Assembly (NCBI GenBank): GCA_045629225.1
Contig: JAZQQU010000095.1
Span: forward strand, 8,055-72,054
DNA from: Bacteroidales bacterium
Lineage (GTDB): Bacteria > Bacteroidota > Bacteroidia > Bacteroidales > UBA3663
Length of the DNA: 64,000 nucleotides
Direction of reading: 5' to 3'
Shown: positions 4,056-46,882 of the stretch, piece by piece
Layout of the letters: each line of letters begins with the position of its first letter
How positions within the stretch are numbered: position 1 is the first letter of the stretch
Notes under the pieces: model-generated
What the model saw: only the letters and a program-made list of their open reading frames with translations
Told to the model about the DNA's origin: nothing
Databases searched by the model: none
Program-made: the position numbers and the translations under genes

Positions 4056-5633
4056 TTACCTCTTGGGAGTAAGGGTGATGAGTGGGATGAGCATCTCCTC
4101 AAGCGAAATACCACCATGCTGGAACGTATCCTTGTAGTACTGCACGTAGTAATTGTAGTTGTTGGGGTAGGCAAAGAAGTCGTGTACGCCACAGATGGCA
4201 TATTGTGTGCTCAGGTTGAGCACAGGTAGACCATATTCCTGCGGATGTTCTATCCAATAGAGTTGCTTGGACTGAGAGTTGAGGTTTTTGCCCAACTTAT
4301 AGCGCAGGTTACTATTCACATTCTTGTCCCCCACAATCTTTACCGCATTATCGCAACGTATAGATCCATGGTCGGTGGTTAAAATCACCTTGTAACCCAT
4401 CTCGGCAATGGTACGGAAGATTTCCATGGTCGATGAGTGTTCGAGCCATGTCTTGGTCAGGGCACGATAGGCAGCCTCGTTGTTGGCAAGTTCGCGCACT
4501 GTCTTCACTTCGGTGCGAGCATGGCTCAACATGTCGATAAAGTTCATTACGATTACGTTGAGCGGATAGCGGCTTAAGCCCTTCAGCTGGCCCGCCAGAT
4601 GCTCTCCATAGCTATTCTCATTGACCTTGTGGTACGAGAATTCGTAGCGCTTGCGGAAGCGGTCGAGCTGTGTTTGTATCAATGGCGCCTCGTTCAGGTT
4701 CTTGCCCTGCTCTTCATCCTCATCGACCCACAGGTCGGGGAACATTGAGGCAATCTGGTCAGGCATCAGGCCGCTGAAGATGGCATTACGAGCATACTGT
4801 GTTGCGGTTGGGAGTATGGAGCAATAGACGTCTTCCTGACAGGTGAAGTATTCGCTCAGGGTGGGCTGGATGGCACGCCACTGGTCGAGGCGGAAATTGT
4901 CTATCACGATGAAGAAGAGCTTCTCGCCGTTGTCGAGCAGAGGAAAAACTCTCAGACGGAACAACTCAGGACTCATCATAGGTGTGCCGGGCAGAGCAGT
5001 ACCTCCCTTACCTACATTGACCAGATGCGACACCCAGTCACGATAGTTCTTCTTCACATACTTGAAGAAGGTGGTGTCGGCCTCCTCTTTCTGCATCAGC
5101 AGCATCGCCCCTAACTGAGGATCTGAGCTTGCCGACAGTTCGGTCTCCCAATAGACGAGGCGTTTATAGACTTCCACCCAGTCGTCGAACGACCGTGCAT
5201 CGCTAATGGCCATGCTGAGACGACCGAACTCCTGCTGGTAGCCTGTGGTCTGCTGTTGCTGAGTGATCTCGCGGCCATGCAAGTGCTTTTTGATGCTCAT
5301 CAGCATCTGGTTGGGCAACACGGGCTTGATCAGGTAGTCGGCAATCTTCGATCCGATAGCCTGATCCATGATATCCTCCTCCTCGCTCTTGGTAATCATC
5401 ACCACAGGCAGGGCTGGTGACATCTCTTTGAGAGCGGTGAGTGTCTCTAAGCCTGTAAGACCAGGCATGTGTTCATCCAGAAACACTAGATCGACGGTGT
5501 GGGCACGTGCATAGTCGAGCGCATCCTGACCATTGGTCATGGTTACAACGTCATATCCTTTCTTCTGGAGGAACATGATGTGGGGCTTTAGCAAGTCTAT
5601 CTCGTCGTCAGCCCATAGTATCTGCGGGTTCAT
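4056..5633 (-). CDS. porX: PorX-type response regulator (CheY receiver + PglZ/alkaline-phosphatase-like domain)
   Basis: 525 aa. The receiver domain is ILWADDEIDLL...VFLDEHMPGLTGLE...VVMITKSEEEDIMDQAIGSKIADYLIKP. It is followed by a ~380-aa PglZ-like domain (ILTTDHGS). Size and order match the T9SS regulator PorX family. Confidence 0.8.
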   Translation of the reverse strand: MNPQILWADDEIDLLKPHIMFLQKKGYDVVTMTNGQDALDYARAHTVDLVFLDEHMPGLTGLETLTALKEMSPALPVVMITKSEEEDIMDQAIGSKIADYLIKPVLPNQMLMSIKKHLHGREITQQQQTTGYQQEFGRLSMAISDARSFDDWVEVYKRLVYWETELSASSDPQLGAMLLMQKEEADTTFFKYVKKNYRDWVSHLVNVGKGGTALPGTPMMSPELFRLRVFPLLDNGEKLFFIVIDNFRLDQWRAIQPTLSEYFTCQEDVYCSILPTATQYARNAIFSGLMPDQIASMFPDLWVDEDEEQGKNLNEAPLIQTQLDRFRKRYEFSYHKVNENSYGEHLAGQLKGLSRYPLNVIVMNFIDMLSHARTEVKTVRELANNEAAYRALTKTWLEHSSTMEIFRTIAEMGYKVILTTDHGSIRCDNAVKIVGDKNVNSNLRYKLGKNLNSQSKQLYWIEHPQEYGLPVLNLSTQYAICGVHDFFAYPNNYNYYVQYYKDTFQHGGISLEEMLIPLITLTPKR

Positions 5634-40434: not shown

Positions 40435-41547
40435 TTACAACCCATAAATGGCATACTTTGCTCTCAGTTCCCTGAACTTCGTCAGATCCTCCTGCCAGGT
40501 AGCGCGTATCTGCTCCTCGGTCATTCCGGCTTTGAGCTGCTCGTAGAGCTTGTCAGAGCCAGCCAGCTGGTTGAAGAACTTCACGTGAGTGATCCATCCC
40601 CAGCCTTTCTCCTTCTGGTGTTGCAGGTAATATTTCAGGCTGAAGCCCTCGGGTGCAGTCTCTTGTCGCAGGTCATGTGTCCCGAACATCTCGAACGGAT
40701 GGTCAGTGCCTCGTCCCACACTTACGTCGCTGCCCTCGAACAGGCAGAGACTGGGGTAGAGAGCTATGGCGTGATCGTTCTGCAGGTTCTTCGAAGGGCC
40801 GATGGACAGCGAATAGGGATCGCCATGCTTCCAACCCGTGCAGGGTATTACGGTCAAGTGGTCCTGAGGCTCAGGCAACCCGGGTTGCTGCACTTCGTTC
40901 AACCAATCCTCATAGGCCATCATGCGAGCCAGTTCGCCCAGCGTGCAGCCATGCAGCAATGGGACAGGGATGATGCCGACAAAAGAGCTGTACTTCATGT
41001 CCAGCATAGGCCCATCCACCACATCCTTGGGATTGGGACGGTCCATCACAATCACCTCCTTACCCTGTTCGCCACAAGCCTGCATCACGTAGTAGAGCGT
41101 TGAGAGGTAGGTGTAGAAGCGACAGCCCACGTCCTGAATGTCGAACACCACCACGTCCACATCCTTCAGCCACTCGGCTTTGGGCTTCTTGGTGTTGCCA
41201 TACAGGCTGTATATCTGCAGGCCGGTCGTTTCGTCCTTGCTGCTCTTGATATGAGCGCCAGCCTCGGCTGTGCCACGATAGCCATGCTCTGGAGCCATGA
41301 TGCAGCGCACGTCCACGCCTAGCGCCAGCAGAGAGTCGGGAAGGGGGACATAGGCACCATCTGACTGCCTACGTATCACGGCTGTCTGATTCACCACCAG
41401 TCCCACTCGCTTGCCTTCGAGCAGAGGCAGATAAACCTTAGTGAGTTCTGCTCCTGTTTTCACACGATTGGCTACTTGGGCGACCGACGCAGAAGGCACA
41501 GAAAGCAGTATCAGAAGCAGCAAAACCAAAAAAAATCGGAAAATCAT
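40435..41547 (-). CDS. DUF1343 family protein (NamZ-like exo-beta-N-acetylmuramidase)
   Basis: 370 aa with a signal peptide. DUF1343 pattern GLVVNQTAV...MAPEHGYRG...VVVFDIQDVGCRFYTY...VMDRPNP. Confidence 0.75.
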   Translation of the reverse strand: MIFRFFLVLLLLILLSVPSASVAQVANRVKTGAELTKVYLPLLEGKRVGLVVNQTAVIRRQSDGAYVPLPDSLLALGVDVRCIMAPEHGYRGTAEAGAHIKSSKDETTGLQIYSLYGNTKKPKAEWLKDVDVVVFDIQDVGCRFYTYLSTLYYVMQACGEQGKEVIVMDRPNPKDVVDGPMLDMKYSSFVGIIPVPLLHGCTLGELARMMAYEDWLNEVQQPGLPEPQDHLTVIPCTGWKHGDPYSLSIGPSKNLQNDHAIALYPSLCLFEGSDVSVGRGTDHPFEMFGTHDLRQETAPEGFSLKYYLQHQKEKGWGWITHVKFFNQLAGSDKLYEQLKAGMTEEQIRATWQEDLTKFRELRAKYAIYGL

Positions 41548-43525: not shown

Positions 43526-43800
43526 TGTGTGCCCACAATTGCTCGCCAGCACTTCTGACAAAAAATTGTGGACGCACAATTGCTCGCCAGAGTTTCTGGC
43601 AGAAAAATGTGGACGCACAATTGCTCGCCAGGGTTTCTGTCAGAGAATTGTGGACGCACAATGACTTGCCAGAGTTACTGTCAGAGAATTGTGGACGCAC
43701 AATATCTTTTCAGGATTCCTGACATAAAATCGAGCTCTCGAAAAGTTTGCCAGAACTGCTGGCGGATAAAAATTTCGTACACAAAAGTCATCTCGGCTTT
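43526..43800. repeat. tandem array, exact 41-bp period, ~6.5 units with twin palindromes; same family as 5664-5885
   Basis: Unit starts tgtggacgcacaat lie at 43567, 43608, 43649 and 43690, with a degenerate unit at 43526. Each unit has ATTGTG-gacg-CACAAT and GCCAGA-gtt-TCTGGC. From 43730 the units switch to the tcgagctctcgaaaagtttgccaga... type seen at 5.7 kb. Confidence 0.9.
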
Positions 43801-43843
43801 CATTCATCTCTCTGTAATATTTTTACCAATTATTTCTATATCT

Positions 43844-45397
43844 ATGCTTAAACAAATTCGTCGCCTTCTGGCTCTCATTTTCTTCGTGGGCCTCACCTGG
43901 CTGTTCCTCGACTTCACAGGCACAGCACAGTCTTTGGTAGGTTGGATGTCCAAAGTGCAGTTCCTTCCCGCCGTCCTGGCCGTCAACGTGGCCGTCGTTG
44001 TCGTGCTCGTATTGCTCACTCTTGTGTTCGGCCGCATCTATTGTTCGGTCATCTGTCCGTTGGGCGTGCTTCAGGACCTCATTTCCTGGGTGGCTGGCAA
44101 GCTCAACTTCAACAAGAACCAGCGTAAGTTCGGACGTTTCAAGTACGATGACGTGAAGTGGCACAAGATGCTTCGCGTGGTCATCTTTGCACTCTTCCTC
44201 GTGGCTCTGGTGGCAGGTTTTGGCACCTTCGTCCAGCTGCTGGCGCCTTACAGCTCGTTCGGACGTATGGTTACCCTCTTGCTCAAGCCACTCTATGAGA
44301 TGGGCAACAATGTCCTCGCCTCACAGGCTGAGGAGGTAGGAAGTTTCCAGTATTATCAGGTTGATGTCTGGCAGCGTAGCCTCCCAGTCACCATCCTGGC
44401 TGCCTGTACCTTCCTGATCGTGGCCATCATGGCATGGGTGGGTGGTCGTGCCTATTGCAACAATATCTGTCCAGTAGGCACCCTGCTTGGTTTCCTCTCA
44501 CGTCGCAGCTTCTATCGCGTCAACATCGATGCTGACAAATGCAAGAACTGTGGTCTCTGTGCCCGCAAGTGCAAGGGTTCGGCCATCGACTTCAAGAATC
44601 ACACCGTCGATGCCTCACGCTGTGTCGATTGCTTCGACTGCCTCGACACTTGCAAGCACGGAGCTCTCTCGTACAGCCTTGCCAAAACAGCAAAAGAACA
44701 AAACAACCAAACAACAAAAGAACCAAACAACGCAGCTCCAGCTTCCTCCGACCCCACCCGTCGCGCCTTCCTCACCGCCACTGCCACCATCCTGGCAGCT
44801 TCGGCCCTGAAGGCTGAGGAGAAGACCACCGATGGTGGATTCAAGGCTCTGATTGACAAGGAGGCTCCAAAGCGTCAGCGTCCGATCTGTCCTCCTGGTG
44901 CTGTGAGCCTGCGTCACTTGCAGCAGCGTTGCACAGGCTGTCAGCTTTGTGTCAGCGAGTGCCCGAATGGTGTGCTTCGTCCCAGTGGCGATCTGATGAA
45001 CATGATGGCTCCTGTCATGAGCTTTGAGCGTGGCTATTGTCGTCCTGAGTGTACCCGTTGCTCAGATGTCTGCCCTGCTGGTGCCATCATCAAGTTCGAG
45101 GGAGACAAGGCCGAACGTCAGGCAGTCAAGGCCAGCACCAAGGTGGGTACTGCCCACTGGATCAAGGAGAACTGCGTGGTGCTCAACGATGGCGTCAGCT
45201 GTGGTGCTTGTGCTCGTCGTTGTCCTCAGCATGCCATCCAGATGGTGCCCAGCGTAGCCGACGATCCTAAGTCTCCTAAGATTCCGGTCATTGACGAGGA
45301 GAAGTGCATCGGTTGCGGTGCTTGCGAGAATCTCTGTCCATCACGTCCATTCTCGGCCATCTATGTCGAGGGTGTCGATACCCAGCGTGAGATCTGA
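43844..45397 (+). CDS. membrane polyferredoxin: NapH/MauN-like module fused to NapG/MauM-like four-cluster ferredoxin via an internal twin-arginine hydrophobic segment
   Basis: The start is trimmed to ATG 43844, because the track ORF from 43568 translates the 41-bp array. Four TM helices with CxxxCP after TM2 and TM4 (RIYCSVICPLG, RAYCNNICPVG). Cluster motifs CKNCGLCARKC and CVDCFDCLDTC. Linker, then TRRAFLTATATILAASALKA. Then CTGCQLCVSECP, CRPECTRCSDVCP, CGACARRCP and CIGCGACENLCP. Confidence 0.7.
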   Translation: MLKQIRRLLALIFFVGLTWLFLDFTGTAQSLVGWMSKVQFLPAVLAVNVAVVVVLVLLTLVFGRIYCSVICPLGVLQDLISWVAGKLNFNKNQRKFGRFKYDDVKWHKMLRVVIFALFLVALVAGFGTFVQLLAPYSSFGRMVTLLLKPLYEMGNNVLASQAEEVGSFQYYQVDVWQRSLPVTILAACTFLIVAIMAWVGGRAYCNNICPVGTLLGFLSRRSFYRVNIDADKCKNCGLCARKCKGSAIDFKNHTVDASRCVDCFDCLDTCKHGALSYSLAKTAKEQNNQTTKEPNNAAPASSDPTRRAFLTATATILAASALKAEEKTTDGGFKALIDKEAPKRQRPICPPGAVSLRHLQQRCTGCQLCVSECPNGVLRPSGDLMNMMAPVMSFERGYCRPECTRCSDVCPAGAIIKFEGDKAERQAVKASTKVGTAHWIKENCVVLNDGVSCGACARRCPQHAIQMVPSVADDPKSPKIPVIDEEKCIGCGACENLCPSRPFSAIYVEGVDTQREI

Positions 45398-45454: not shown

Positions 45455-46882
45455 ATGAAACATATAATCGATCGTCGTGAGTTCCTCCAGCGCCTTGGCT
45501 TGGGTGCAGCAGCTGTGGCTACTGCTTCGGCCTTGCCATCGTGCATCACGGCTCCAAAGCCTTCGGAGGAGGGCGACTTCAACCCCAAGGGTGGTCCGTT
45601 CAGCGAAGATCAGCTGGGCGAGATGACCTATCGTGTGAACCCTGCCAATGGTGACAAAGTCAGCATCCTCGGCTATGGCTGTATGCGTTTCCCTCAGCGC
45701 ACCGATGGTAAGACTGCCCCTGATGGCAATGACCTCGATCAGGAGAAGATCAACGAACTCGTCAAGTATGCCATGGATCATGGTGTCAACTACTATGACA
45801 CAAGCCCTGCTTACCTGAAGGGCTACTCTGAGCGTTCGGTAGGCATCGCTCTCAAGGCTACGGGACGTCCTCGTGAGTCATATTACATTGCCACGAAGCT
45901 CTCTAACTTCGCTCCTCAGCAGCAGACGCGTGAGGCTTCGCAGGAGATGTTGCACAACTCCCTCAAGTACCTGCAGACTGACTATATCGACTACCTCCTG
46001 CTTCACTCCATCGGTGGCGGTGGTATGAAGAACTTCAACCAGCGCTACATGGATAATGGCATCCTCGACTGGCTCGTCGAACAGAAGCAGAAGGGTGTGA
46101 TCCGCAACCTGGGCTTCTCGTTCCATGGCGAGGCTGAAGTCTTTGAGACCATGCTCAAGTGGCACGACGAGGGTCGCTATCACTGGGATTTCGTCCAGAT
46201 CCAGATGAACTACCTCGACTGGAACAATGGCAACAAGCAGGAGGGTCGTAGCATCAATGCAGAGTATCTCTATGACGAACTCGACAAGCGCGAAATCCCT
46301 GTGGTCATCATGGAACCACTGCTTGGTGGCCGATTGAGCAACCTGCCCAACCATGTCATAGCTCACCTCAAGGCTCGTCTGCCTCAAATGAGTGCAGCTT
46401 CGTGGGCCTTCCGTTTCTGCGGTACTTATCCACGCGTGCTCAGCGCCCTCTCTGGCATGACCTACATGGAACATCTGCAGGACAACCTCCGCAGCTTCTC
46501 GCCTCTGGTGCCACTGACTCAGGAAGAGCTCGACTACCTCGAAGGTGCAGCCAAGCTGCTCATCAAGTATCCGCTCATCCCATGTAATGACTGCAAGTAT
46601 TGCATGCCTTGCGAATACGGTTTGGACATCCCAGGCATCTTCGTACATTATAATAAATGTGTCAACGAAGGTGTGCTCCCAGGCAGTCCTGAGGATGAGA
46701 ACTACAGCGAGCTGCGTCGCAACTATCTCATCAGCTACAATCGTGCCATCCCTACGCTCCGTCAGGCCGACCATTGCATCAACTGCAACAAATGTACTCC
46801 TCACTGCCCGCAGAACATCCGGATTCCACAGCAGCTTGAGAAGATCAATGCAGCCATCGAGCAGTTGAAGCGCCATGGTTAA
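45455..46882 (+). CDS. aldo/keto reductase with C-terminal Fe-S cluster domain, predicted Tat-exported lipoprotein
   Basis: 475 aa. Twin-arginine signal DRREFLQRLGLGAAAVATASALPSC with a lipobox Cys. AKR core (GYGCMRF, YYDTSPAY, IATKL, LLLHS). C-terminal CNDCKYCMPC and CINCNKCTPHCP. Confidence 0.75.
   Translation: MKHIIDRREFLQRLGLGAAAVATASALPSCITAPKPSEEGDFNPKGGPFSEDQLGEMTYRVNPANGDKVSILGYGCMRFPQRTDGKTAPDGNDLDQEKINELVKYAMDHGVNYYDTSPAYLKGYSERSVGIALKATGRPRESYYIATKLSNFAPQQQTREASQEMLHNSLKYLQTDYIDYLLLHSIGGGGMKNFNQRYMDNGILDWLVEQKQKGVIRNLGFSFHGEAEVFETMLKWHDEGRYHWDFVQIQMNYLDWNNGNKQEGRSINAEYLYDELDKREIPVVIMEPLLGGRLSNLPNHVIAHLKARLPQMSAASWAFRFCGTYPRVLSALSGMTYMEHLQDNLRSFSPLVPLTQEELDYLEGAAKLLIKYPLIPCNDCKYCMPCEYGLDIPGIFVHYNKCVNEGVLPGSPEDENYSELRRNYLISYNRAIPTLRQADHCINCNKCTPHCPQNIRIPQQLEKINAAIEQLKRHG

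Follow-up and report, generated by a model that had tools for sequence, protein, structure and literature searches.

The fused polyferredoxin gene and its internal twin-arginine motif

The window considered here, a stretch of 64,000 nucleotides from a bacterium of the order Bacteroidales (GenBank assembly GCA_045629225.1, contig JAZQQU010000095.1), contains on its plus strand a gene for a polyferredoxin of 517 amino acids, in which a NapH-like part is followed by a NapG-like part (positions 43844 to 45397, ATG start; delineated from the open reading frame, Pfam, NCBIfam and alignments with NapH and NapG of Escherichia coli). At the junction of both parts lies a motif for twin-arginine translocation (Tat), T-R-R-A-F-L (residues 305–310, 44756–44773), which was located by alignments and by a pattern scan. 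In a preliminary description of this DNA, residues 301–326 (44744–44821) had been given as SSDPTRRAFLTATATILAASALKAEE and had been described as a T-R-R-x-F-L motif plus a hydrophobic stretch, situated after four Sec-type transmembrane helices and before a four-cluster ferredoxin domain. The residues were read here exactly as given there, and both the hydrophobicity scan and the cysteine motifs bear out this arrangement. When the six-frame translation of the window (128,000 residues) was searched for [ST]RRxF[LI] with 12 or more uncharged residues behind it, a single match was obtained, which is located at the motif site.

The preliminary description had proposed orthologue alignments as a check on the arginine pair, and these came out in favour of its conservation. 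Among the listed close homologues (56–90% identity) 119 of 120 contain RR, the remaining one LR. When 1.84 billion cluster representatives were searched exhaustively with HMMER, 8138 matches were obtained at E ≤ 0.001 and 1139 at E ≤ 1e-30. In a distant set, consisting of the best 150 representatives of 50%-identity clusters (35–56% identity with the query), 144/150 sequences have RR (109), KR (29) or RK (six) at this place, while the rest comprises a single conserved Arg in four, QR in one and two fragments. Tat motifs are known to function also with KR or RK. The 83 species-level Bacteroidales homologues all contain R307, and position 306 is occupied by R (70), K (11) or L (2), with RR, KR or RK thus being present in 81/83; F309 is found in 77/83 and L310 in 73/83 of them. 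The linker preceding the pair, on the other hand, varies among the 150 distant representatives from about 10 to more than 60 residues and exhibits no sequence conservation. As RR, KR or RK is kept across the homologues inside an otherwise variable linker, the TRRAFL motif is not a product of chance.

A further check proposed earlier concerned the existence of split orthologues, and both halves of the protein do align with the separate NapH and NapG proteins of E. coli, namely residues 41–278 with NapH (BLASTP, E 6e-12) and residues 350–498 with NapG (BLASTP, E 1e-11). The informative NCBIfam matches are to NapH at residues 173–285 and to NapG at residues 302–499 (profile positions 7–197). The NapH/MauN match (TIGR02163, NF007013) reaches 79 bits and is below the cut-offs of 213 and 234, meaning homology at the domain level only. 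The NapG/MauM match (TIGR00397, NF007012) reaches 56–57 bits versus cut-offs of 179 and 269, with an alignment spanning the signal region and three cluster motifs. As query residue 302, where this match starts, is aligned with profile position 7, the internal RR falls on the N-terminal RR signal of NapG. NapG from E. coli starts with MSRSAKPQNGRRRFLRDVV...ARASGVRLRPPGA, and the corresponding part of the window protein (...DPTRRAFLTAT...ALKAEEK...RQRPICPPGA) has a similar spacing. From this agreement in spacing and motifs we conclude that the internal motif is the N-terminal Tat signal of a NapG-type protein, which was kept when the latter became fused behind a NapH-type protein. Judged from these alignments, the protein is a NapH-NapG-type fusion. 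An assembly or frameshift artefact was rejected as the origin of the fusion, as the fused architecture is present in 84/84 related loci. These comprise the best 80 of more than 600 matching stretches from a scan of one genome per species and four loci fetched earlier. All of the best 80 stretches belong to Bacteroidales or to mis-binned Bacteroidales-like metagenome-assembled genomes, and they cover Bacteroides, Phocaeicola, Prevotella, Alistipes, Parabacteroides, Odoribacter, Muribaculaceae, Tannerellaceae and Lentimicrobiaceae.

The hydrophobicity scan identified four strongly hydrophobic segments, putative transmembrane (TM) helices, in the NapH-like part. TM1 (residues 8–26, 43865–43921) is preceded by K3, R6 and R7, of which R6 is invariant; going by these charges, the sequence suggests that the N-terminus is located in the cytoplasm. 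TM2 (residues 42–62, 43967–44029) is followed by a first, invariant GRxYCxxxCP motif (C67, C71, P72), and the loop of residues 63–111, which leads to TM3 (residues 112–133, 44177–44242), holds ten Lys or Arg residues in its sequence, fitting a cytoplasmic location. TM4 (residues 181–201, 44384–44446) precedes a second RxYCxxxCP motif (C205, C209, P210). Altogether, the distribution of Lys and Arg in the loops obeys the positive-inside rule, with a charge of +3 before TM1 and only few such residues in the two predicted outer loops. The NapH-like 2x[4Fe-4S] motifs (C233/236/239/243 and C260/263/266/270, 44540–44653), which have invariant cysteines and align with the C-terminus of E. coli NapH, are predicted to be cytoplasmic. 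They are followed by a low-complexity linker (residues 279–304, 44678–44755), which represents the n-region of the internal signal, is of variable length in homologues and exhibits a low predicted local distance difference test score (pLDDT) in the AlphaFold2 (AF2) model, with values below 50 at residues 289–305.

Behind the twin-arginine motif, the hydrophobicity scan and the family comparison reveal a weakly hydrophobic h-region or putative TM5, AFLTATATILAASAL, of 15 uncharged residues (residues 308–322, 44765–44809). A possible signal peptidase I site, L-K-A↓E (residues 322–325, 44807–44818; the arrow marks the putative cut), was assigned from the homologue comparison and the literature on the preference for Gln behind such sites. 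The NapG-like 4x[4Fe-4S] domain, delimited by NCBIfam and alignments, extends from an RPxxPPGA motif to the C-terminus (residues 346–517, 44879–45394), is predicted to be periplasmic and contains four complete cysteine motifs (C363/366/369/373, C399/403/406/410, C444/453/456/460 and C488/491/494/498). In a 53-sequence alignment with a mean column identity of 37%, these 16 cysteines are invariant, and the same holds for the eight cysteines of the cytoplasmic cluster motifs and for the two CxxxCP motifs. Pfam assigned two NapH-type Fer4_5 domains to the membrane part and several 4Fe-4S Fer4 families to both soluble parts. The AF2 model (66-sequence alignment) exhibits a low-confidence helix at residues 307–324, followed by a low-confidence coil at residues 324–334. 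Foldseek and a sequence search against the PDB retrieved only generic ferredoxin modules (FwdF, PsaC, MvhB) and no solved NapH-type membrane protein. A look-up of the exact window protein in the assembly collection gave no record.

The start of the protein, MLKQIRRLLALIFF, agrees with the N-terminal consensus of 65 homologues, which begin with MLK(K/Q)IR. A frame of 609 amino acids with a GTG start (43568–45397) in the list of open reading frames was rejected as spurious, as homologues begin at the point corresponding to the ATG at 43844; its upstream extension is created by a 41-nucleotide tandem repeat in the intergenic region. The IRR at residues 5–7 was likewise discarded as a Tat motif, as only R6 is conserved and both TM1 and TM2 are strongly hydrophobic. 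In one cluster representative of 305 amino acids (P0167), TM3 runs straight into ...AHTALRAQEKLTDGG, and TM4, the cytoplasmic clusters and RR are missing. This sequence was considered as a split gene and turned out to be an internal-deletion variant instead, being probably either an assembly artefact or a deletion variant.

Neighbouring reductase and tat genes

Directly downstream of the polyferredoxin gene, the window encodes an aldo/keto reductase (AKR) with a C-terminal iron-sulfur (Fe-S) domain, an N-terminal Tat signal (DRREFLQRLG...) and a lipobox-type cysteine (45455–46882, plus strand; Pfam Aldo_ket_red and Fer4_9, TIGR01409), which scores above the TIGR01409 cut-off for Tat signals. 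A homologue of this reductase adjoins the polyferredoxin gene in 83/84 loci, directly downstream in 81 and directly upstream in two of them, and all 83 adjacent reductases start with an RR signal followed by a Cys-containing, lipobox-like end. With the reductase next to the gene in nearly all loci, a periplasmic Fe-S partner for the polyferredoxin would be available. The catalytic-tetrad-like residues of the window reductase are readable (DTSPAY, ATK, LLHS), as is its Cys-rich C-terminal Fe-S domain, and the nearest solved structures are distant AKRs only (e.g., L-galactose dehydrogenase, E 1.6e-13). In the periplasm, an AKR would lack free NAD(P)H, and its hydride-transfer fold would have to be coupled to one-electron Fe-S centres with no flavin in between. 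A literature search on this reductase partner found nothing relevant. Three metagenome contigs (L001–L003, with the homologue P0118) encode, at a site about 7 kb upstream, a second AKR with an Fe-S domain, a paralogue which is 51% identical to the window reductase, and also possess a plain AKR of 282 amino acids directly upstream of the polyferredoxin gene.

Genes for the Tat translocase were sought by tblastn with TatA and TatC from E. coli and subsequently from Prevotella. In 28/84 loci tatA-tatC is found beside the polyferredoxin-reductase pair on the same strand. In 19 of these loci, all from Prevotella or Prevotellaceae, it is located immediately upstream with gaps of 11–299 nucleotides (e.g., positions 5095–5986 in L007), and in nine loci (Phocaeicola, Bacteroides, Muribaculaceae and others) it is located downstream of the reductase gene. 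In a genome several megabases in size, chance would, by a rough estimate made without a computation, place a single-copy gene within 6 kb in well under 1% of loci. It is known from other bacteria that tatAC can lie beside principal substrates, as in the cases of fepABC in Staphylococcus aureus and phoD in Bacillus subtilis. As tatA-tatC adjoins the pair in Prevotellaceae, Bacteroidaceae and Muribaculaceae, this suggests that the polyferredoxin and the reductase are a principal Tat substrate set in Bacteroidales. The neighbours of the pair in the window are dnaJ and an ABC transporter, the same as in the syntenic locus L004. The tie of the gene to a Tat-exported Fe-S reductase, often near tatAC, points to a hitherto unstudied system for electron transfer in the periplasm of dominant gut bacteria.

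Relation to known dual Sec/Tat proteins and proposed route of assembly

To our knowledge, only few membrane proteins depend on both the general secretory (Sec) and the Tat translocase, and the only polyferredoxin tested so far comes from an uncultured delta-proteobacterium and was examined in E. coli alone. The class as such has already been published (Tooke et al. 2017), and the window protein is a new, very widespread member of it from Bacteroidales. What is new here is the link to a reductase partner and to tatAC, together with a candidate cleavage site. Looking for polytopic proteins in which a Tat motif lies internally, Tooke et al. 2017 (eLife, PMC5449189) found a polytopic polyferredoxin of the delta proteobacterium MLMS-1 (Q1NSB0), which has five TM domains (TMDs), three clusters inside, four clusters outside and a conserved RR directly before TMD5. 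This protein was described as a fusion of NapH and NapG, with homologues being listed in several phyla, and the export of maltose-binding protein (MBP) and AmiA fused after TMD5 was dependent on Tat and on RR in E. coli (PMC5449189). For a comparison, residues 1–364 of Q1NSB0, the part taken from the supplement of that paper, were aligned with the window protein. Both are colinear over residues 63–322 of the latter (25% identity, BLASTP E 6e-13), with both CxxxCP motifs, both cluster motifs and the two RR pairs aligned in register. They share five hydrophobic segments, two CxxxCP motifs and a 2x[4Fe-4S] module on the cytoplasmic side, an uncharged h-region of 15 residues and a four-cluster NapG-like domain after RR. 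However, the membrane parts are only 25% identical. Unlike Q1NSB0, members of the Bacteroidales clade carry behind the h-region a conserved motif resembling a signal peptidase site (A↓Q, in the window protein A↓E), are fixed beside the Tat-exported Fe-S AKR and often lie beside tatAC. Furthermore, Q1NSB0 was tested by reporter fusions, whereas the Bacteroidales clade is known from sequence alone.

The same modules, cysteine motifs and order are found in NapH and NapG of E. coli, a quinol dehydrogenase of the periplasmic nitrate reductase system, and in E. coli NapG the N-terminal Tat signal, RRRFL, and the RPPGA motif are spaced like their counterparts in the window protein. However, the E. 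coli proteins are encoded by two genes, while the window protein is fused (H followed by G), no nap genes are located nearby, and the neighbouring partner is an AKR and not NapAB or NapC. Actinobacterial Rieske proteins (Sco2149, QcrA from Mycobacterium tuberculosis) were the first dual Sec/Tat substrates (PMC5449189). In agreement with the assembly proposed here, their N-terminal helices are inserted by Sec, RR precedes a weak last helix and Tat moves the folded Fe-S domain; they differ in lacking homology, in having only three helices, in carrying one Rieske domain of the 2Fe-2S type and in being part of the bc1 complex. As the Pfam search of the window protein found only Fer4 types and no Rieske domain, the protein is analogous to the Rieske class and not a member of it. 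The preliminary description had named the Rieske proteins as the known example of combined insertion. They are a precedent but not the sole case, as the same NapH-NapG architecture has been published with Tat-dependent reporters (PMC5449189). Fusions of the Sco3746 type, in which a heme protein is joined to a molybdoenzyme (MsrQ-MsrP-like), are also alike, with five helices, RR before TMD5, a Sec-dependent membrane subunit and a Tat-exported partner (PMC5449189), but they contain heme b and molybdenum cofactors and have no sequence relationship to the window protein.

The hydrophobicity of the segment behind RR differs strongly from that of the other helices. Sums over 19 residues, calculated with a simplified version of the Hessa 2005 scale (the dGpred server was used by Tooke et al.), were +0.9 for TM1 (residues 8–26), −3.1 for TM2 (residues 44–62), −2.8 for TM3 (residues 112–130), −1.9 for TM4 (residues 182–200) and +8.7 for the segment after RR (residues 308–326), the 15 uncharged residues of which alone sum to about +0.5. 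In 98.6% of the family members TM5 is less hydrophobic than TM2, with family medians of +6.3 for TM5, −2.1 for TM2 and −1.2 for TM4, and of the charged residues behind the h-region the first one is K or R in 111/141 members. In the family, the weak TM5 and the subsequent K or R match the rules that Tooke et al. derived for the handover from Sec to Tat.

Taken together, these data make it quite probable that the window protein, a fusion polyferredoxin of the NapH-NapG type, is assembled with the help of two translocases, first Sec and then Tat. Such a combined Sec/Tat insertion had already been put forward in the preliminary description, and the fusion homology, the conservation of RR and the alignment with the MLMS-1 protein speak for it at the sequence level, and the tatA-tatC genes and the second Tat substrate beside the gene in related loci lend it further support. 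TM1–4 would be inserted co-translationally by Sec/YidC with the N-terminus inside, and the two CxxxCP motifs together with the NapH-type 2x[4Fe-4S] module (residues 202–278) would remain in the cytoplasm. There, the NapG-like domain would fold and gain its four [4Fe-4S] clusters. The internal signal, consisting of the polar linker, TRRAFL and the Ala/Thr-rich h-region of 15 residues, would be retained from the NapG ancestor, and its h-region would be too weakly hydrophobic for Sec, so that TatC may recognize it instead. TatA would then bring the folded domain out into the periplasm, and the segment would cross the membrane as TM5. The result would be a chain of Fe-S clusters crossing the membrane, the most probable function of which is to connect the neighbouring Tat-exported Fe-S AKR lipoprotein with the menaquinone pool or with cytoplasmic donors. 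Genetically tractable hosts such as B. thetaiotaomicron and Phocaeicola could show the handover from Sec to Tat in a native setting.

Several points weigh against this assembly by two translocases. Within this family, the direct experiments cover the MLMS-1 protein only, and the dependence on Tat in Bacteroidales is a prediction. No tatA or tatC was found by tblastn in the 64-kb window; for this reason, we infer the presence of Tat in the source organism from the neighbouring Tat-signal protein and from relatives. The NCBIfam scores for NapH and NapG are far under the family cut-offs, the AF2 model is only of moderate quality (pLDDT 70, predicted template modelling score (pTM) 0.57), and the hydrophobicity values are simplified sums on the Hessa 2005 scale and not dGpred output. 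Of the positive charges expected behind the last segment, the window protein has K323 and K327, but these are offset by E325, E326 and D330, and the eight residues after the h-region (KAEEKTTD) are net negative. Finally, rare natural replacements of R-R by L-R occur (P0090, GSLRTFL; 2/83 species-level sequences at position 306).

Alternative topologies, possible cleavage of the internal signal and intergenic repeats

Three other explanations were weighed against the proposed assembly by Sec and Tat. The C-terminal ferredoxin domain might stay in the cytoplasm, so that the whole polyferredoxin would face this side on a four-helix anchor, with the RR segment being left over from the fusion or forming a membrane helix of the peripheral or re-entrant kind. 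The weak hydrophobicity of the segment and its low AF2 confidence would be compatible with this. However, a mere relic would not keep RR/KR, F309 and L310 over more than 1000 sequence clusters while the linker varies freely, the homologous segment of the MLMS-1 protein exports reporters in a Tat-dependent manner, and both the tatAC linkage and the obligatorily periplasmic Fe-S partner would be left unexplained, which makes a cytoplasmic domain improbable. Alternatively, Sec might insert TM5 as well and export the C-terminal domain unfolded, which would then acquire its clusters outside the cytoplasm. Although this is the default route of polytopic proteins, nothing specific points to it here, the hydrophobicity of the segment is far below that of TM2–4, and the conserved Tat consensus would have no role. 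Moreover, we know of no periplasmic Fe-S assembly machinery, which also counts against an export of the unfolded domain, and we regard this route as highly improbable.

The third explanation shares the dual Sec/Tat route and concerns the fate of the signal, which might be a complete, cleavable Tat signal peptide that is cut by signal peptidase I after Ala324. One product would be a NapH-like membrane subunit with the used signal peptide at its C-terminus, the other a free NapG-like ferredoxin in the periplasm, which in most Bacteroidales would have an N-terminal Gln cyclized to pyroglutamate, and the gene would act as a 'polyprotein' ensuring a 1:1 supply of both subunits. We consider such a cleavage a serious possibility, albeit not the favoured one. 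With 15 uncharged residues here and a family median of 16, the h-region has the length of a signal peptide and not that of a signal anchor, and the AF2 helix ends precisely at residue 324, with the low-confidence coil coming next. A324 is invariant in 66 close homologues and is followed by D330-G331-G332. At the end of the h-region, 74/83 species-level Bacteroidales homologues contain A-Q (73) or S-Q (1), dipeptides which occur in only 3% of the control windows of 14 residues from the same proteins, and many family members without A-Q end in AxA-like motifs (e.g., ...MPARA↓AE, from a cluster with a Verrucomicrobiae member). About 71% of the signal peptidase I substrates of Bacteroidetes have Gln at +1, which is then cyclized (Bochtler et al. 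2018, PMC5837995). The same Gln(+1) rule is exemplified in the source organism by a homologue of the NamZ-like exo-muramidases encoded in the window (40435–41547, minus strand), the signal peptide of which ends in ...SASVA↓QVAN.

Yet, the window protein itself has A↓E and not A↓Q at this site, being one of nine of the 83 homologues without an A-Q or S-Q dipeptide, six of which have A-E there. As the homologues are related, the counts are not independent of one another. The conserved KAQEK..DGG could instead have a role in folding or docking, and Ala-rich h-regions yield AxA-like strings by chance. In addition, the MLMS-1 protein has no obvious site (LLRVSNPPE), and Tooke et al. engineered a cleavage site into their fusions, with native cleavage not being discussed there (PMC5449189). 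If the A↓Q site were cleaved, it would constitute a natural internal, cleavable Tat signal, of which no description was found in the literature covered. More tentatively still, a polyprotein cut at A↓Q (here A↓E) might free the ferredoxin to form, together with the reductase lipoprotein, a near-universal uncharacterized periplasmic redox module, which could be a major reason for gut Bacteroidales to keep tatAC, genes that frequently belong to its operon.

A scan for promoters and terminators gave counts no higher than those obtained in shuffled sequence. The gap between dnaJ and the start of the polyferredoxin gene is filled by an array of about five tandem copies of the 41-nucleotide repeat (43526–43730, plus strand), which are 71–85% identical, have roughly the consensus TGTGGACGCACAATTGCTCGCCAGAGTTTCTGGCAGAAAAA and contain short palindromes. 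This array could be a repetitive extragenic palindromic (REP)-like element or a set of regulator-binding sites.

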